From the IMG/VR virus record IMGVR_UViG_2541047882_000006: a DNA stretch of 33,679 nt; one strand, written 5' to 3'. Made by a program: the position numbers and the translations under genes. This DNA comes from a virus. Its lineage: Duplodnaviria > Heunggongvirae > Uroviricota > Caudoviricetes. A model generated the notes under the pieces. The model worked only from the letters and a program-made list of their open reading frames with translations. It had not been told where the DNA came from and did not search any database. Shown here piece after piece: positions 4,134-18,499 of this stretch (the first letter of the stretch is position 1; each line of letters starts with the position of its first letter).

Positions 4134-4832
4134 TTACTGCGAAAGTTTGTTAATGGAAAGGAAGCCGCCAAAGTTGCCGACGTTATTGCGGAACTTACAA
4201 CCGCTCAGGCATTTGCTGCATTTATCCTTCGTGATATCGGACGTCGGCTGGTCATATTCATCCGCGACCGCCGGACCGCTATAACCGCACTCATCGCCGC
4301 GATAGGTCCAGGTGCAGGTGTTGGCCAGCATGATACGTCCCGGAAAAACAGCGCCATCCGTTTCAGTCGGCGTGGACAGTACAAAAGAGGCACTGACCGC
4401 GCTCAGTTCGCTGCACTGCTCGATGCGCCAGCGGCTGATCACCTCCTGCTCCGGATCGGCTTCGCTGTTTCCGTTGACGAAGTTCACCGCATCCAGAAAG
4501 CGGGCGTAAACCTTACGCCGGACCACCGTTCCGCCGACCAGACTCTGCAGATCTTCCGCCATCCCGGTGATCATGCCGTGCAGGTTAGAGACCGTCAGTG
4601 TCGGACGGGCAGCACTGCCCTTGCCGTTCATCTCAAATCCACTCCCCTGAATGGGATAGGCCTGATACTGCCGACTCTGCCAGGTGACAGACTCACCTTT
4701 TTCGTTCTGCTCATTACAGAAAAAGTAGCGATCCCCGCCTACCTCGGTCAGGTCGATTTCCCAGAGCACCACGCTGGCCGACTGCTCCGCACGAATGCAT
4801 TCATTCAGCGTTTCCTGTTGTATGTCCTGCAT
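4134..4832 (-). CDS. minor tail protein L (lambda gpL-like)
   Basis: 232-aa track ORF, same length as lambda gpL; conserved Cys-rich C-terminus (CSKCLSGCKFRNN); lambda gene order. Confidence 0.9.
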   Translation of the reverse strand: MQDIQQETLNECIRAEQSASVVLWEIDLTEVGGDRYFFCNEQNEKGESVTWQSRQYQAYPIQGSGFEMNGKGSAARPTLTVSNLHGMITGMAEDLQSLVGGTVVRRKVYARFLDAVNFVNGNSEADPEQEVISRWRIEQCSELSAVSASFVLSTPTETDGAVFPGRIMLANTCTWTYRGDECGYSGPAVADEYDQPTSDITKDKCSKCLSGCKFRNNVGNFGGFLSINKLSQ

Positions 4833-5170
4833 CAGATCACCACTTCGTCAAACTGACACGAAAAATCGGTATAGGTGATATGTTCTGTCGCTGACCACGT
4901 TCGACACACCACTCTGATTTTTCTGTTAATACCCGGCGGGCGCCAAAAAAAAGATTTATAGCCTTCATGCCGGGCTAAAAATTTTTCAAATGAATCACGT
5001 TCATTCGCCTCAACTTTGAAATCACAGGTGAAAACGCGCAGAGAATGATTAAGTCCATTTGGACTTCGTTGCTCATAACCATCGCCAAATCTTACAGTTT
5101 TTATCGATGGTTTATTTTCTGTTTTCATTCCATCCTCTGGTAACCAGTGAAATTCTTCCGTATTAGCCAC
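4832..5170 (-). CDS. minor tail protein M (lambda gpM-like)
   Basis: 112-aa track ORF; [16 protein letters not shown] and [15 protein letters not shown] resemble lambda gpM; lies between H and L. Confidence 0.8.
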
Positions 5171-8100
5171 TTAACATTCCCCCATCACGTCGCATATTTA
5201 ACAGATTGCCCTGCACCCGCTGATCAACCATCCCCATAAGTGCTTTTATTGCCTGAGGGCCAATCTCTCCATTCTGGCCGTCATTTTGAATAGTGATTTG
5301 GTATACAGGGGCATAGGTAATATCTCCGCCTCCATTACCACTTTTACTATTAATAGCTCTGACACCAAGAGAACCATCGGAAGTTCGTGTTAATGGCATA
5401 ATGGCTTCCGGACCAGCCTCACCAAAAACACCAGCCCCTCTTGCAAAAGCAAAAAATTGCGGGGAATCATAAATACCGTTCGAATACGTGTTCAATGACG
5501 GAGACTCATAAACACCGCCCTTTGCATTCGGAATAAATTTACTAATAGCACTCCCGATAGTTCCTAAAATCCCCCCAGAAGAACTGTTACTAATGCTGTC
5601 GAAAATCCCAGTAATTGAAGCCTTTAATGCTATTCGACTAAGATCCGAAATCACGGAAGTAGCGAAAGAACGAAAATTTGCCTTGCCTGTCGTGACAAAA
5701 TCACCCAACGCATCGGTCATTCCATCAAACATCTGAGTCGTGGTTGATTTTATCTGCTCACTGATATCCTTAGTGTCATCCAGCCAGTTATTGAATCCCT
5801 GGGAGGCACCACTAACCCAGTCTCCTGCCTGAATATCGAGCTGCTCGTTTTTCTGTCTGACAATTTCTTTTTCTCGTTCCAGAGCATCATTCAGAGCCTG
5901 CATTTTCTCCTGAAAAACATGATTTGACATCCCACGGGATTTATCTGCATAGTCACGTTCAAGTTGCAGACGCTGATTGTTATATTCACGTTCAATCCGC
6001 AGTAATTCCTGCTGGCGTTGCTGATTTTTATCGCCAACCCCATAACCAGCAATCTGAATATCATACCCCTGTTGACGATTATCAATCGAAGCCTGCAATG
6101 AATCACGCCATGCAGCTATTTCGGCGGATTCCTTGATTAGCCTGTTATTTTTTTCAATCGCAACATTTTTCTCCATCAACGCGGTTATTTCTTCCCGGTG
6201 TAAGAGAAGCGATTTCTGATCCTGGGTTAATTTCGATGACGGTCGTGACTCCAGGTCGGCAATCTGCTGACGCCACTTAACCAGTTCCTGTTCAGAGGAA
6301 CTTAATTTAACGGTTAATTCAGTTTGTGAACTTAGTAACGCATTCTGTTGATTCAGATGATCAATCATTCGTTGGGCAGCATCATCCGAATAACCTTTCG
6401 CCTTTGGTTGCTTTGGATCTTTATAACGCTCATTTATTTGAGCGATAAAATTATTATATTCTTCCTTTGAATACTGACTCTTTAGCTTTTCCAGTTTTGC
6501 AAGTTCACTAGCTCTCTGCTGCTCCCGGGTCTGATATTGTTTTGAAAAGGCATCTGCTCTCTGTCTGAGTTCAATTCCTTCCTGTTGTCGCTTGTTGTAA
6601 TCGTTTATTGATGAATTTAGGACGTCCTGAGCAATTTTTTCTGCTTGAAGTACGCCCAATTGCTGCTTTAATCGTGCCAGCCTTTTATTTTGAGCTCCGC
6701 CATCTCCAATGCCACCTAACCCGAAAACTCCGGGTCGGGTATTTTTTTCTATTTCATCAATTTGACGGAGAACATCTGAGATTTTTTGATCAAGGGAGGC
6801 CTCACGGCCAATATCCAGCATGGAATCCCATGCCCATTTTGCGGAGTCTGCCACAGCTTTCCATGCAGTCTCAAGATAACCAAGATTTTCTTTAATCTGG
6901 TTGGTGCGCTGGATCATTGAGGATGAGTATGCTTCTGTCGCAATGCGGGCGGCCTCCTGCTGGTTCCCTTCATCCTGTAGCGCCTTAATCTGGTTATAAG
7001 TCGCAATTGTCAGAAAATGGTACTGATCATTAAGTTTTGATATGGCACTGACAGGATCCTTTGCAATTTCATTGAAGTCATTAACCAGTTGTTCGGTTGA
7101 TATTCCTGTTACTTCGCTCGTTTTTACTATCGCTGTCGTCACTTGCTCCAGCGAACTGCTCGCTACCTTTCCCGAACGCACAAGCTGGTTTAATACTGCC
7201 GCCGCAGCGCCAGTTGTCGAATCAGCCGCATTCCCGGCACGTTGAGCTATATCGGCCAATTGCCCGCTGGTTGTCCCCAACTGATTTCCGGTAAGAATAA
7301 GAGATTTATTAAATTCGTCCTGCTCCTGAGAGCCTTTATAGTAAGCCAGCCCTAAGACGCCAACGGCTGCTGCGGCCAGGGTAAAAGGATTAATTAATCC
7401 CAGCACATAAGAACCAACACCTTTGATCGCCGGGCCAATCCCACCGAACATATCTTTTAGCTGGCCGCCCTGCTGCATTAACACCATAAAAGGCGACTGA
7501 CCAGTGGACAACCCAACAACAATATCCGTCATTTGTGCAGGCAACATGCGCATAGCAAAAGCCGTTTGTTTTGCCGACATTCCGGTTTTGCTTAATTGAG
7601 ATTGAGTAACCTCAAGCTCACTCCGCATAGCACGAAGTTTTCCAGAAAGTTCCTCATACATTTCAGGAGAGAGCATCCCCTTAGCTTTTGCTTCATTGAG
7701 CTGTTTCTGTTGTTCTACCAGACGATTAAAAGCAGTTCCGACAGGGTCAAGTTGAGCAATCAGACGTTGCAAAGCAGCAACCTGTTCATCATGCGCTTTT
7801 GCTGCTTCTCGCTCTGCCTGAGCCTCTCCGGTAAGCTCTCGCCGTGTTTCCTGTATTTTTCGGCTATAATTCTCAAACTGAGAACCATTTATTTTCCCGG
7901 ATGCAAACGCAGCATTAAGTTCATCCTGCTGTTGTTCAAGATTTCTTAGCGCCGCAACCAGAGGGTCGATCTTGTCCAGCATTCTTTGAAAGGCCTGAGC
8001 CTGCGATTCCTGCTGGGCGGCAGCAAGTTTTCCGGCCTTCTCGGCTTCTCTCTGCGCTTGCGCAACCCCGCTCAATTCCTCTGTGGTTTCATTAAGTTTA

Positions 8101-12916: not shown

Positions 12917-14374
12917 TTAGGAGCGCCAAAAAAAACCTGAAAACAATATAATAACAGGATAAATTTCAAGGCGACCAAGAATCATAGCTATGCACATTAA
13001 ACATTTTGCAATGTCATTAAGCACTCCGAATGACGATGCAGTAGCCCCAAAACCTAATCCCATATTATTAATACATGCAGCCACTGTTGCAAATGATGTA
13101 AGAAAATCATATCCCATACCATTTAACACCAGTATAAAAAACACCGTGAAGAGAGTATAAAGAAAAAAGAAACTCCATACAGACCTCATTACACGATCTG
13201 TAACTATCTTCCCTCCTACATTTACACTCAACAACGCTCTGGGATGAGAAAGCTGATTTATCTCGTGTTTGCTTTGTTTGAAAAGTATAAGAAATCGAAG
13301 TGACTTAATTCCACCACAAGTTGAACCTATACATCCCCCAAAGAAACTTGACAACAGCAAAAACACTATCGTATGCGTGGGCCAACTTGCATAATCCTGC
13401 GTAGCTAAACCATTATCAGTGAGCATGGAGCTGGCAAGAAAAAACGAATGAATAAAACTTCCATGCAAGTCATACATACCTATATGCCAGACCTGGAAAG
13501 AGGTAACAATGATCACCCCTAAGGCTATTAACAGAAAGAAACGAAGTTCAATATCTCTGATTAAAGGTTTTATCGTTTTCCTGCTAATAACAATATACCA
13601 AAGAGTGAAGTTGAAAGCCGATAGCAGGGAAAAAGAACCAGCCACCAGCTCAACCAAATAGTTATTAAAATATCCGATACTCTCGCTATGAGTTGAGAAA
13701 CCACCAAGCGAAACTGTGGAAATCCCGTGACAAATAGCATCAAACAAAGGCATTCCTGCAAGTCTATAACAGACAATACAAGCAATACCTAATAAAGAAT
13801 AAGTTATCCACAGTGTCCGTGACGTATCGGCCAGGCGGGGAGTGAGTTTGTCATCCTTAAATGGCCCCGGCATTTCTGACTGATAAAGCTTTGCACCACC
13901 AATACCCAATAATGGCAATACAGCAACCGCCAGAACAATAACTCCTAAACCACCTATAAAATTTAACTGTGACCGATAGTACAAATATGCCCGAGGTAAT
14001 GAACTAACATCATCAATTACAGTTGCTCCTGTTGTTGTTATTCCAGAAACCCCTTCAAACAGAGCATCAATGAACGTTAAATTAAGTTCTGAGTCAATCC
14101 ATAAAGGGAATGCACTAATAACAGAAAACAAAATCCAAAACATTACAATTATAATAAACCCATCACGGGTACGTAATTGAATGCCAGATTTCTTAGTTGT
14201 ATACCACGCTCCGCCACCAATGCAAAAAAATATAACGAAAGTTATAAAGAAAACGAACAGGCTTTTTTCTTTATAAAACAATGCTACAACCATTGGTGGC
14301 AACATTGAAAGACTATAGAGCCAAACCAGGAACCCACACATATGAGTAACAACTCTTACATGAGATGTATTCAT
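12917..14374 (-). CDS. trkG: Trk-system potassium uptake protein TrkG (prophage-borne TrkH paralog)
   Basis: Track ORF 12917-14392; start placed at MNTSHVRVVTHMCGFLVW to match K-12 TrkG (485 aa as recalled); polytopic membrane protein; AT-rich. Confidence 0.9.
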   Translation of the reverse strand: MNTSHVRVVTHMCGFLVWLYSLSMLPPMVVALFYKEKSLFVFFITFVIFFCIGGGAWYTTKKSGIQLRTRDGFIIIVMFWILFSVISAFPLWIDSELNLTFIDALFEGVSGITTTGATVIDDVSSLPRAYLYYRSQLNFIGGLGVIVLAVAVLPLLGIGGAKLYQSEMPGPFKDDKLTPRLADTSRTLWITYSLLGIACIVCYRLAGMPLFDAICHGISTVSLGGFSTHSESIGYFNNYLVELVAGSFSLLSAFNFTLWYIVISRKTIKPLIRDIELRFFLLIALGVIIVTSFQVWHIGMYDLHGSFIHSFFLASSMLTDNGLATQDYASWPTHTIVFLLLSSFFGGCIGSTCGGIKSLRFLILFKQSKHEINQLSHPRALLSVNVGGKIVTDRVMRSVWSFFFLYTLFTVFFILVLNGMGYDFLTSFATVAACINNMGLGFGATASSFGVLNDIAKCLMCIAMILGRLEIYPVIILFSGFFWRS

Positions 14375-14511
14375 ATCTAAATATTCTTTCAATTATAACC
14401 ACCTTGCTGCAATATTATGATTATACTGTATAAAATTTAACTCCTCTTAGATCTTACTTCACTGTTCCTTATGAAACAATCATCAAAATGAATCATATTG
14501 TAGTTAAGATT

Positions 14512-14976
14512 TTACTTTAAACACTGCTCGGTTATGTATTGCTGAGCACCTTCAAGTTGGGCCTGCATCATTACCAGTCGTTCCCGGAGGGTGAAATAAT
14601 CCCGTTCAGCGGTGTCTGCCAGTCGGGGGGAGGCTGCATTATCCACGCCGGAGGCGGTGGTGGCTTCACGCACTGACTGACAGACTGCTTTGATGTGCAA
14701 CCGACGACGACCAGCGGCAACATCATCACGCAGAGCATCATTTTCAGCTTTCGCATCAGCTAACTCCTTCGTGTATTTTGCATCGAGCGCAGCAATATCA
14801 CGCTGACGCATCTGCATGTCAGTAATTGCCGCGTTCGCCAGCTTCAGTTCTCTGGCATTTTTGTCGCGCTGGGCTTTGTAGGTAATGGCGTTATCACGGT
14901 AATGATTAACAGCCCATGACAGGCAGACGATGATGCAGATAACCAGAGCGGAGATAATCGCGGTTACTCTGTTCAT
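14512..14976 (-). CDS. i-spanin Rz
   Basis: Track ORF 14512-14988; start at [17 protein letters not shown] (N-terminal transmembrane helix) directly after the endolysin stop; coiled-coil periplasmic domain; contains the embedded Rz1 frame. Confidence 0.8.
14571..14756 (-). CDS. o-spanin Rz1 (outer-membrane lipoprotein), embedded in Rz in the +1 frame
   Basis: 61-aa track ORF; lipobox LVVVGC; proline-rich mature region ([16 protein letters not shown]); fully nested in Rz as in lambda and phage 21. Confidence 0.75.
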
Positions 14977-15470
14977 TGCTGACCCCACAAACAGATTTCA
15001 CGCTCAATCTCACGACGAGTCATGAGACCTTTCCATTGCTTACCGCCAGCATATGTCCAGCGACGTAGCTGATCACATGCGCCTTTGATATCGCCCTGGT
15101 TTATTTTGCGAAGAAGCGTCGATGTTCTGAAATTGCCAGCACCCACGTTGTAAACGAATGAGTAAAGAGCGCCGCGCGTTGTTTCCGGTATATCGACTTT
15201 GATGTACGGGTTAATTTGTCTGGCGACAGTGGCAAGGTCTTTATTCAAGAGTGTTTTGCATTCTGCTTTGGTATACGTTTTACCGAGCATGATGTCTTTT
15301 CCTGTATGCCCGTGACATACAGTCCATACACCAACAATATCTTTGTATGGTATGTAGCTGACACCTTCCAGACCATCGTTACCACTTGGGCCAGTGATTA
15401 ACACTGATGCTATAGCAATTGCTCCGCCACCAATAGCAGCAGCAACGACTTTTCGTAATGATGGAGGCAT
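14973..15470 (-). CDS. SAR endolysin (T4-lysozyme-type glycoside hydrolase with N-terminal signal-anchor-release segment, phage 21 R-like)
   Basis: 165-aa track ORF; N-terminal weakly hydrophobic Gly/Ala-rich segment ([18 protein letters not shown]); catalytic E-x8-D-x5-T pattern ([16 protein letters not shown]). Confidence 0.85.
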
Positions 15471-15685
15471 TATTCACCTCTCGCAGCCTTGCGCTTATCT
15501 TCTTTAATCTTGAAATAAAGGTTTGTCAGGTACGTCAGCAGGCCAAATACCAGACTACCCAGCACACCGATTGCAGCCCACTGTGACGGAGTTACTCTAT
15601 CGAGCAACTGTAAAAACCAGTAGCCAGCACTGCCTGCGGAGGTGCCGTAGGCAATGCCTGTTGAAATTTTGTCCATGGATTTCAT
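15470..15685 (-). CDS. holin (phage 21 S-type pinholin)
   Basis: Track ORF 15470-15742; start placed at [14 protein letters not shown] (dual-start motif MKSM); two transmembrane segments; C-terminal [13 protein letters not shown] recognised as S21-like. Confidence 0.8.
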
Positions 15686-15936
15686 AGCCTCACCTCCGCA
15701 CGGAACGGATGGCATAGTTATTATGTGTAGGCTTTCAGACACATCAATCAGAGCCTTAATTGATATATATGCTGGAGACGATGCAATATAAAAAGCTCGC
15801 CGTAGCGAGCTAATAAAATGTATTTCTCTGATATTATGTTTATTTGTATTAGCTCAGACTTGACATCACAGGTTTCGTATATAGAACATCATCAAATCTG
15901 TCAGTTTGCTATGAATGAGATATAGTAATTGAAGAG

Positions 15937-16332
15937 CTAACCTCGCATGTCAAAGCCAGATTTCTGAAAATCTCTGTAGACTTCCGGATTGTTGAAGGCC
16001 GGAAATTTGGCTTTATGAGCTGCGGACTTTATCGCTTCGCAATAGGCTTTATCACCGTTACTGGTAGATATTTTTAACGCCGTGCCATCCTGAGAGAATT
16101 CCATATGCAACCTGCATTTTTTCCCTTTCCAGTTATGCGGCTCATCAAGTTTGGCATTAATTGCAGCTCTGATTCCCCGCGCTTGCGCCCCCCATTCATC
16201 CTGATCATCCCAGCGTCCTGAACTGCAACTACCTGTAGCAGTAGTTTTGTGGCAATCTGAAGGGTGTAAAGGTGTGCATCCCGCAACAAAACCGACCCAA
16301 AAAGTCAACATAACGATTTTCTTTAATCCCAC
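15937..16332 (-). CDS. lipoprotein with TolA domain III-like C-terminal domain (paralog 2, divergent)
   Basis: 131-aa track ORF; signal peptide and lipobox (FVAGC); C-terminal ~80 aa share the two-Cys pattern and the PEVY-x-F motif with the upstream paralog and with TolA domain III. Confidence 0.6.
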   Translation of the reverse strand: MGLKKIVMLTFWVGFVAGCTPLHPSDCHKTTATGSCSSGRWDDQDEWGAQARGIRAAINAKLDEPHNWKGKKCRLHMEFSQDGTALKISTSNGDKAYCEAIKSAAHKAKFPAFNNPEVYRDFQKSGFDMRG

Positions 16333-16482
16333 TTCTTGCTCCTCAATCCATTAAAATCTCAGCAATAGTAGTTGTTACGTCCGCCACTGGCTCAGAGCTG
16401 ACTATCCGCTAAATTTAGCTCAGTGCCGTAGCTGTGTCAGAACAAACCTAAGCCGAAACCGTTTATTACAAAACAATAAATA

Positions 16483-16911
16483 TCAGGGTTTAAAATCCAG
16501 CACCCCATTTTGAAATACTTTATATACTTCCGGCGAAGGGGGGGCAGGTATATCAGCATTCTTTATCGCATTCATCGCTTCACGACATAAATCGAGGTCT
16601 CCACTTTCTCTTTTAACCTCCAGTAGAAGGCCATTCGGGGCCATATGCATTCTCAGTGTACACTCTTTTCCTGAATACTTACTCGCATCCCCGAACTGTT
16701 TTTCGATGGCGCTCTTGATTTGATGGGCATACAGACGGATATCCTCACTAACATCAGAAGTACGTTCAGATGAACTCACATACTGTGTCTCTATTGCTTT
16801 ATCGGAGTAATATGATGTACGGTCATGATAATTTGTCGATACAGCATCAGTGCACCCGATAATAATCCCACTAATAATCAACGTAAGAATTGATGCGCTA
16901 CGAAAACCCAT
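16483..16911 (-). CDS. lipoprotein with TolA domain III-like C-terminal domain (paralog 1)
   Basis: 142-aa track ORF; lipobox IIIGC; C-terminus YAHQIKSAIEKQFGDASKYSGKECTLRMHMAPNGLLLEVKRESGDLDLCREAMNAIKNADIPAPPSPEVYKVFQNGVLDFKP aligns closely with the E. coli TolA C-terminus (...YAGQIKSAIESKFYDASSYAGKTCTLRIKLAPDGMLLDIKPEGGDPALCQAALAAAKLAKIPKPPSQAVYEVFKNAPLDFKP) as I recall it. Confidence 0.7.
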   Translation of the reverse strand: MGFRSASILTLIISGIIIGCTDAVSTNYHDRTSYYSDKAIETQYVSSSERTSDVSEDIRLYAHQIKSAIEKQFGDASKYSGKECTLRMHMAPNGLLLEVKRESGDLDLCREAMNAIKNADIPAPPSPEVYKVFQNGVLDFKP

Positions 16912-17849
16912 TTTTCCTCACATATGTCATATAGTAAAGGATTATATATACCGTTGTTTTGGACGCTCAAACAGCGAATCAGATCAAATAAAACGCACAT
17001 TTGTTAACATTTACACAAAGTCTGCGTGGGATATTCTGAAAGAATATCCATAATGTGGAGAGAATCTATTGAAGTGCATGGTGCCGGGTGCCTCCCGGTG
17101 AACAAAATGTTCGTGATACCTGTCGGCGACAGAAAAGGTTAATGGTATCACCCCACCGCACAGGGGGATTCACCATGCAGGAGTTTTCTTAGCAAACTCA
17201 CTGCGCGCCCGGCAACTCCCAACCACATAAAAATGCGGAGTTTGTGGCATTTATGCATATAACTCGCAGGAATTATCTTAAAAAACTGATGTCGATCCGG
17301 ATTAAAAAGAAGCAGGTCATCATCAGATGACTGGAAAAAAGGAAAACAAAAAATACTCATCATACAGTTTTGATTGCAGGGATGAGCCTGCTATGCACAA
17401 TATGCAGAATATAAGCAAGATAAAAATATGCAGGCATATTATTTCGGATTTTGTTATTAACACAACCTTTTTAATAATCATTTGGCATACAATAAACCAG
17501 CCCAGAAAGAACCGCCTAAACAGGCGGTTGGTCAATACAAAGGATGCTTCGTCTTTATTATAGTAATCTGAGGCGTCGGGTGTCTTGTATCAGACAACAT
17601 ATTGTCCCGCTAAACAGCGAATTACAAACCACCCTGCAATGATCTCTCATCTCATTTTATATGAGTTGACGACATCAGGATAACGCATCATCAGCCCCTG
17701 CCAAGAAATATCAAAACTCCCGCCAGCAATGTGTTATCACAATATTGTAAAAAAAACACAGCACCGAAACTATAACTGGTCTCTGTTATAATTTGGAGCA
17801 GAAAGACCAGTTGCCCAACTAGCAGCATTCTCCCCTGCTTTCCTGACGT

Positions 17850-17876
17850 AAAAAAACCGCATTAAGCGGTTTTTTT
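17850..17876. terminator. bidirectional intrinsic terminator; candidate late terminator tR' downstream of the Q-like gene
   Basis: Perfect inverted repeat AAAAAAACCGC-attaa-GCGGTTTTTTT: GC core stem with an A-run on one side and a T-run on the other, about 80 nt downstream of the Q-like stop codon. Confidence 0.6.
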
Positions 17877-17956
17877 ACGATGTCCATGTCTGCAATCCGC
17901 CTCGCGATACAGCTTTGCGAAGCATAGCAAAATTGAAGCAGTTTATACGTAAGAAA

Positions 17957-18499
17957 TCAAGCCATTTTCTCAGCAAATGATTCACGCATGGGAATATATA
18001 GGGCATACTCAGCAACAGCTAACCAATTAGCAATCCGTTTTTCGCATGTGCTAAAACACCACTCTGGGTGTGCATCATTTAGCAATTCAGCCATTTTGCG
18101 CTTAGTCATCCCCCGCCCTTCATAGCGTTGCCGGAGAATGCAAATCAATCCTGGATGCTCTGCCAGCACCTCACTTATGACTCGATCAATACATAACGCC
18201 TCTGCATCAGTACAATGCGCCAGCCAGCTCTTTTGCTTGCCGTTGATCATCTCTCGCAAAAACGCTTCCAGCTCAGCTTTCTCTATTCCCGCTTTTTTCA
18301 TTCTGCGCAGGGCTTCATTAATGGCTGTTTTCGTCAGTTTTTTGGATGCCAACAACTGATTGAACATATTCCCTGACCTGCCACCGCCAATATACGACCA
18401 GCGCCCCCACATACGTAGTTTTCCCTGAATCCAGACACTTTCCAGCGTGGTGAGGCGAAGGTGTTCTCCGCTTTTTCCTGTATTCGTTGGGTAAATCAT
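17957..18499 (-). CDS. putative late-gene antiterminator (Q-like), assigned mainly by position
   Basis: 180-aa track ORF immediately upstream of a terminator and the lysis cassette, following nin-type genes. No confident sequence match recalled. Confidence 0.4.
   Translation of the reverse strand: MIYPTNTGKSGEHLRLTTLESVWIQGKLRMWGRWSYIGGGRSGNMFNQLLASKKLTKTAINEALRRMKKAGIEKAELEAFLREMINGKQKSWLAHCTDAEALCIDRVISEVLAEHPGLICILRQRYEGRGMTKRKMAELLNDAHPEWCFSTCEKRIANWLAVAEYALYIPMRESFAEKMA

Follow-up and report, generated by a model that had tools for sequence, protein, structure and literature searches.

Two tandem genes in the late region of a Rac-family prophage, open reading frames (ORFs) A and B, encode lipoprotein copies of the C-terminal domain (domain III) of the Escherichia coli protein TolA, and neither is a full TolA. 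Both lie on the minus strand of the window, the whole stretch of 33,679 nucleotides analyzed here (IMG/VR record IMGVR_UViG_2541047882_000006, a tailed virus), where an earlier note made from the sequence had placed two tandem lipoproteins. We favor, at a probability of roughly 0.45, the reading that they act as decoys against Tol-dependent colicins and filamentous phages, and that protection of the host is the effect for which they have been selected.

The identity of the domain is evident in both sequence and predicted fold. Against the Pfam TolA C-terminal profile PF06519 (cut-off 25 bits) ORF A scores 82.6 bits (E 2.4e-23) and ORF B 54.6 bits (E 1.3e-14). A phmmer search of PDB sequences aligns residues 55–142 of ORF A without gaps to residues 334–421 of E. 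coli TolA (1s62, 3qdp, 2x9a and 1tol; E ~5e-28), at 59% identity, and matches ORF B to the same domain (TolA-III, residues ~330–421) at E ~5e-9 and 31% identity. The disulfide-forming cysteine pair of enterobacterial TolA-III is invariant across an alignment of the TolA-III, A and B families, and the last strand of ORF A reads LDFKP, exactly as in TolA. AlphaFold2 (AF2) models have pLDDT values of ~90 in both domains and low-confidence N-terminal regions; in Foldseek comparisons the ORF A model superposes on 2x9a_B with a TM-score of 0.95 and a root-mean-square deviation of 0.7 Å, and the ORF B model on 3qdp with a TM-score of 0.92 and 1.1 Å, and the TolA-III fold, a three-stranded sheet packed on helices, is present in both. 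The near residue-for-residue likeness to TolA-III that the earlier note had described for the upstream copy, and the cysteine pattern it saw in the more divergent one, are borne out, as are the profile search and structural superposition it had proposed as checks. One E. coli allele of ORF A at NCBI (P0010, 158 residues) is frameshifted, being identical through ADIPAPP and continuing into an unrelated tail; it lacks the last helix and the LDFKP strand, and could be a natural loss-of-function control.

The remainder of TolA is missing. Neither protein has an N-terminal inner-membrane anchor or a helical domain II, neither gene lies in the tol-pal operon, and as the membrane helix and domain II are missing there is no link of either protein to the TolQR motor. 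Instead, each has a cleavable lipoprotein signal, a linker of 25–35 residues and the TolA-III domain, and is encoded in the prophage late region. The full-length TolA model NF007065 scores 107.8 (ORF A) and 53.7 (ORF B) against a cut-off of 213, over model positions 293–387 only. ORF A exceeds the TIGR02794 cut-off (75.6 versus 59.45 bits) over only the last 98 of 362 model positions, and because this C-terminal part alone passes the cut-off the gene is over-named ‘tolA’ in RefSeq. Hundreds of RefSeq E. coli genomes therefore seem to hold two tolA genes. PHROG 5772, which covers these proteins, is labelled ‘unknown function’, and a PADLOC-DB scan of ORF A and ORF B gave no match to any defence model.

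Both proteins begin with a basic n-region and a hydrophobic stretch leading to a lipobox (IIIG-C20 in ORF A, FVAG-C19 in ORF B) that fits the pattern [LVI][ASTVI][GAS]C, and so have the features of signal peptidase II substrates. For ORF B the GTG at 16332 is the more likely start, as it has a GAGGAG Shine-Dalgarno sequence in front of it and yields a well-formed lipoprotein signal; RefSeq uses a later internal ATG (a 375-nt coding sequence in SE11), which leaves out the Lys-Lys n-region. The products are probably exported and lipid-anchored in the inner leaflet of the outer membrane. The Lol +2 rule is the basis for outer-membrane sorting of lipoproteins, and it is the Thr, rather than Asp, at position +2 in both proteins that points to this location.

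Judged by purifying selection, ORF A and ORF B are working genes. The ratio of nonsynonymous to synonymous substitution rates (dN/dS) of mature ORF B is 0.04–0.09 in comparisons of prophage, plasmid and chromosomal copies, whose synonymous sites are close to saturation, and that of ORF A is 0.24 in the domain and 0.57 in the linker (mature codons 1–35). Besides its lower identity and altered last strand, ORF B differs from TolA-III by an added, conserved, cysteine-containing linker (CxPLHPSxCHKTTATGSCSSGRWDDQDEW), which is constrained to the same degree as the domain by dN/dS and is less variable by entropy (0.17 versus 0.34 bits in 113 representatives). This linker, although predicted to be disordered, probably has a function of its own. 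A search of PDB sequences with it gave no meaningful match; its SSGRWDDQDEW segment may loosely resemble the TolB box of colicins.

ORF A is present in 898 of 5426 complete E. coli genomes, nearly always on the chromosome; 782 of the copies are at least 99% identical, and the complete A and B pair is found in 773 genomes. Variants of ORF A that are 66% identical occupy, alone without B, the Q-to-holin interval of Shiga toxin (Stx)-type prophages, and an A-type gene occurs in just one of 50,697 phage records. B-type proteins, ~88% identical, are encoded on ~600 plasmids; the gene directly follows nikA-nikB in all seven I-complex plasmids sampled (IncK2/Z and IncI-gamma/K1), and is near psiA, psiB and hok on pO157-type plasmids. 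Enterobacter and Citrobacter carry B-type genes on the chromosome as well, at different, non-syntenic, non-prophage loci, with the same neighbours in at least five Enterobacter genomes. A third lineage of TolA-III lipoproteins (144 residues, lipobox ITA-C, ending ALDFRL) is present on ~290 plasmids, mostly of Klebsiella. The earlier note's framing of these genes as phage-borne thus holds for the pair in this prophage, but is too narrow for a large family that is also found on conjugative plasmids and as conserved chromosomal genes. A is common in E. coli genomes and nearly absent from phage records, a distribution which suggests that selection acts in the host and not during lytic growth.

Two plasmid neighbourhoods contain genes of known defence systems. 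In the IncI-gamma/K1 plasmid NZ_CP122602 (sampled locus 4759–4998) the nikB-adjacent B-type gene has a BrxA-family gene, for a component of BREX, ~860 nt downstream. In the one Klebsiella plasmid sampled, NZ_CP024835 (locus 5217–6246 and 1–2394), the third-lineage gene directly follows a gene for a secreted thioredoxin-fold protein, and a Gabija gajA gene (E 2e-217), with a UvrD-helicase gene after it, is 3.4 kb away.

The plasmid and chromosomal copies are part of a still wider family. A profile search of 1.84 billion representatives yielded 575 relatives, and lengths and lipoboxes were counted in the 148 newly retrieved sequences among the best 150 of these: 95 are shorter than 175 residues, and at least 59 of the 95 have a lipobox, none of them with Asp at +2. 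The short TolA-III lipoproteins span dozens of clusters, and two representatives from different 50%-identity clusters share a chromosomal locus that is flanked by a ClC-channel gene and an osmoprotectant ABC transporter. Full-text searches of the literature turned up no functional study of TolA-III proteins borne by phages or plasmids, in agreement with the earlier note, which knew of none; two passing mentions were all that was relevant, an annotation remark on a Cronobacter prophage (PMC2833190) and an unclear one in an enterohaemorrhagic E. coli ciprofloxacin transcriptome. The TolA-III domain family and the RefSeq annotation of these genes are already known, and the decoy idea is close to known laboratory results; new here are the distribution of ORFs A and B, the plasmid and chromosomal lineages, the wide family of short lipoproteins, and the selection on B.

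As decoys, A and B would compete with native TolA for ligands that join TolA-III by beta-strand addition. Candidate ligands are the translocation domains of Tol-dependent colicins, the N1 domain of the filamentous-phage protein g3p and, indirectly, the TolB N-terminus within colicin-TolB complexes. A ligand held by an unenergised outer-membrane decoy could not be drawn inward and would stall at entry, and for this reason the cell would be tolerant; the benefit would be that of a mobile element protecting its host, as with a lysogenic-conversion or plasmid-fitness gene. We infer both ligand binding and protection for A and B, as we do their location in the outer membrane and their expression in lysogens. 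Overproduced periplasmic TolA-III reportedly gave colicin tolerance in work by Levengood-Freyermuth in 1993.

Published work on TolA-III is consistent with this proposal. The last strand of TolA (A415–K420) is the site of strand addition for the TolB N-terminus, colicin N and g3p-N1, and colicin A binds the opposite edge of the sheet; affinities for TolA-III are ~1 µM for colicin N and g3p compared to ~40 µM for TolB (PMC4339652; PMC7391070), such that a decoy could capture invaders while tying up little TolB. When periplasmic g3p-N1 sequesters TolA, cells are resistant to colicin A and phage uptake drops by 4 logs (PMC10424213); in laboratory use, export of TolA-III renders the outer membrane leaky (PMC6195910). 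The earlier note had proposed either a decoy or a perturbation of Tol-Pal, and both proposals would accord with the strand-addition site shared by TolB, colicin N and g3p and with the loosening of the outer membrane by exported TolA-III (PMC4339652, PMC6195910). Phage If1 uses IncI plasmid pili as its receptor (PMC7911639), and If1 g3p has been crystallized with TolA-III, its co-receptor (PDB 2x9a). We favor host protection because A is common in prophage-bearing genomes and nearly absent from phage records, because the genes recur on plasmids and at variable chromosomal spots, and because the B-type gene belongs to the relaxase operon in relatives of the plasmids whose pili serve If1 as receptor.

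Several observations weigh against the decoy reading. The last strand of ORF B is FDMRG, with its length unchanged and the Asp kept but the other residues altered, and the conserved ORF B linker hints at a partner that a decoy would not predict. Since a probable late promoter lies just after the Q-like gene, A and B would be within the late transcript, and their strongest transcription is expected as lysis approaches, when protection is useless. The promoter and terminator proposed for the module itself are matches to consensus sequences, and natural expression may be too low when compared to the overproduced laboratory TolA-III. The syntenic chromosomal members located between housekeeping genes suggest that some of the family, at least, have an ordinary function in the envelope.

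A broader proposal, which we regard as possible though somewhat unlikely, is that short outer-membrane TolA-III lipoproteins are widespread, unrecognised receptor-mimic defences carried by prophages, I-complex and Klebsiella conjugative plasmids, pO157 and chromosomal islets, giving broad tolerance to Tol-dependent bacteriocins and pilus-specific filamentous phages, with the cysteine-loop and acidic-tryptophan linker of ORF B (SSGRWDDQDEW) serving as a second binding epitope. Should that linker bind TolB, B would trap TolB-colicin complexes with two hands.

Among the closest known systems, an engineered periplasmic TolA-III made as a signal-sequence fusion (Levengood-Freyermuth 1993; Wan and Baneyx 1998; both as cited in PMC6195910) and reported to render the outer membrane leaky is a motor-free exported domain, like A and B, but is soluble and overproduced, whereas A and B are natural and probably lipid-anchored in the outer membrane. 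The N1 domain of g3p (pIII) made in an infected cell targets the same interaction of TolA-III, and shuts out both colicin A and additional phage (PMC10424213). It is a mirror image of the proposed decoys, in that N1 sequesters the host TolA, while A and B would sequester the TolA-binding domain of the invader and leave TolA free. Cor, Llp, TraT and lambda Bor are also small cargo lipoproteins of prophages or plasmids that alter cell entry, but the resemblance is one of role only; they are not known to be related to A and B in sequence or fold, and act on outer-membrane receptors rather than as mimics of an import hub.

Among the alternatives, the one that survives best, though we consider it unlikely, is that A and B modulate Tol-Pal for the benefit of the element, the anchored TolA-III binding the TolB N-terminus or another partner and locally disabling Tol-Pal, such that a loosened outer membrane would aid late phage release or vesicle formation, or assembly of a plasmid pilus or mating channel. 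All the prophage contexts seen place the genes within the Q-dependent late transcript and in its orientation, and the copy on I-complex plasmids comes after the relaxase genes. The outer membrane leaks when TolA-III is exported (PMC6195910), TolA mutations deficient in TolB binding give a full tol phenotype (PMC4339652), and vesicle production could be regulated via TolB interactions (PMC7391070, a review of Tol-Pal). However, a lysis aid should be common in active phages, and the single A-type gene among the phage records argues against the perturbation of Tol-Pal during lysis that the earlier note had offered; with the gene almost never in sequenced phages, a main role as a lysis accessory is judged less likely. 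Moreover, the prophage already has a complete set of holin, endolysin and spanin genes, the TolA-TolB affinity is weak (~40 µM), and a damaging activity is hard to reconcile with the stable copies on the chromosomes of Enterobacter, Citrobacter and other Enterobacterales.

Still less likely, in our view, is an ordinary envelope family with a housekeeping role in some Enterobacterales, whose prophage and plasmid copies are passengers or bring the same role to new hosts. The size and diversity of the family, with a preponderance of short members among the best hits, are in its favor, as are the ClC-channel locus shared by two clusters, the constant neighbours of the Enterobacter B-type gene, and an ORF B linker more conserved than the domain, which suggests a specific partner. 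Yet B-type genes are at different loci in each genus and on three kinds of mobile element, the pattern of traded accessory genes, and E. coli K-12 does without any such gene; the proposal also names no mechanism, and is compatible with a decoy as the traded trait.

Exclusion of tailed phages by receptor masking, in which A and B block an outer-membrane protein from the periplasmic side and the TolA-III fold is a mere scaffold, appears very unlikely. An outer-membrane lipoprotein in a prophage cargo position is what it would call for, and prophages or phages encode lipoproteins, Cor and Llp, that inactivate FhuA. The TolA/TonB-type fold docks outer-membrane partners by strand addition, and the Foldseek neighbours include transporter-bound TonB C-terminal domains. 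Nonetheless, no sequence relationship to a known exclusion protein and no PADLOC match was found, and a scaffold has no need of the TolA-specific features of ORF A (the 59% identity and LDFKP).

We give next to no credence to decaying, functionless fragments of a captured tolA, for although the prophage family is cryptic in K-12 and the frameshifted P0010 allele exists, the ORFs are intact with a newly acquired signal peptide and lipobox each, purifying selection is strong, ORF A is at least 99% identical across 782 genomes, native tolA has no DNA-level similarity, and the architecture recurs in dozens of protein clusters. A pseudogene or remnant was rejected on dN/dS, intact lipoboxes and family size, and a recent capture from E. 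coli tolA was rejected as a sensitive DNA search with ORF A hits native tolA in no genome and the protein identity is 59%.

TolA domain III is the common entry handle of group A colicins and filamentous phages, and if natural, lipid-anchored copies protect cells, their defence would consist in the molecular mimicry of an import hub. Carriage is common, with A in about one-sixth of complete E. coli genomes and B on pO157 and in the backbone of the sampled I-complex resistance plasmids. If protective, they would bear on bacteriocin competition in the gut, on colicin and phage therapeutics, and on the use of pilus-specific phages against resistance plasmids. They would also offer Tol-Pal research natural competitors of the TolA-TolB contact; should their role be to tune Tol-Pal, A and B would be the first regulators of this system to come from mobile elements.

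Features of the TolA module and its surroundings in the window. Positions are those of the 33,679-nucleotide stretch.
Feature	Coordinates	Strand	Description
ORF A	16483..16911	minus	142 aa, lipoprotein with TolA domain III; RefSeq name ‘tolA’
ORF A signal peptide and lipobox	16852..16911	minus	MGFRSASILTLIISGIIIG-C20; +2 = Thr, +3 = Asp
ORF A linker, residues 21–54	16750..16851	minus	predicted disordered, poorly conserved
ORF A TolA-III domain, residues 55–142	16486..16749	minus	ends LDFKP
ORF B	15937..16332	minus	131 aa from GTG start, lipoprotein with divergent TolA domain III
ORF B signal peptide and lipobox	16276..16332	minus	MGLKKIVMLTFWVGFVAG-C19; +2 = Thr, +3 = Pro
ORF B linker, residues 20–44	16201..16275	minus	TPLHPSDCHKTTATGSCSSGRWDDQDEW; two extra cysteines; predicted disordered
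ORF B TolA-III domain, residues 45–131	15940..16200	minus	ends FDMRG
Q-like protein	17957..18499	minus	DUF1133; marginal Phage_antitermQ match
Probable late promoter and early terminator (pR'/tR'-like)	17850..17956	minus	inferred; hairpin aaaaaaaccgcttaatgcggttttttt
STnc100 prophage small RNA element	17022..17208	minus	full-length match, 86.6 bits versus gathering score 47
Transferable TolA module, approximate extent	15725..17199	minus	from shared DNA and G+C content
Sigma-70-like promoter match	16941..16970	minus	TTGAGC, 18-nt spacer, TATAAT; 10/12; consensus match only
Intrinsic-terminator-like hairpin	15786..15811	minus	AGCTCGC-TACG-GCGAGCT (15794..15811) then TTTTT; consensus match only
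Lysis cassette	14512..15685	minus	P21-type holin 15470..15685; lysozyme 14973..15470; Rz 14512..14988
Embedded Rz1-like lipoprotein ORF	14571..14756	minus	within lysis cassette

The window is a Rac-family prophage with recE, kilR, sieB, ydaS-V genes, trkG and ydaY, and no tRNA genes were found in it. On the minus strand the order is DUF1367, YbcO, the DUF1133 Q-like gene, ~1 kb without long ORFs, A, B, and the lysis cassette. A and B thus occupy the Q-to-holin interval where the earlier note had located them, a position typical of lambdoid ‘moron’ cargo genes, with the Q-like gene upstream and a P21-type cassette downstream. They are also missing from K-12 Rac, as that note had it: there ydaW abuts the rzpR pseudogene, and the pair is absent because everything between the two has been lost. 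The segment directly after the Q-like gene (17850..17956) is 91–93% identical to other phages and contains a strong hairpin and T-run, consistent with a late promoter and early terminator; it has an isrK-like Rfam match that is weak (21.6 bits) and below threshold, and the terminator is absent from the consensus-scan list.

The A and B pair looks like a self-contained prophage cargo unit that may be expressed in the lysogen, in view of its own promoter-like and terminator-like sites, its lower G+C content, and boundaries that are not shared with other holin-upstream regions. The promoter-like match is ~30 nt before the ORF A ATG and is followed by a GAGGA Shine-Dalgarno sequence, and the terminator-like hairpin lies between ORF B and the holin gene, within DNA specific to the module. 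Variants of ORF A at 66% identity have unrelated upstream DNA, and promoter conservation is therefore unusable as evidence. The DNA from ~17199 to ~15725 is common to phage mEp460_ev081 only, other phages being similar from ~20–40 nt upstream of the holin start, and module G+C content is 38–47%, compared to 45–55% in the lysis genes and 45–54% in the Q-side genes.

The STnc100 element lies ~110 nt upstream of ORF A, just before the promoter-like site, and its terminal hairpin is without the usual U-run; STnc100 has been related to the PasD small RNAs of Stx phages (2026 preprint). Within it, a 42-nt segment (17148–17189) is 90% identical to one just downstream of stx1B in ~70 Stx1 phages (e.g. 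H-19B), and may be a shared junction for the exchange of late-region cargo modules. Just downstream of the lysis cassette is trkG (12917–14392, minus strand; TrkH family, E 5e-145; G+C content ~33–34%), a further cargo gene typical of Rac. The TolA module is present in LR597641 (mEp460_ev081) but not in NC_019716 (mEp460), which matches from the holin onward only, and mEp460_ev081 looks like a recombinant that has acquired the region from a Rac-type prophage.

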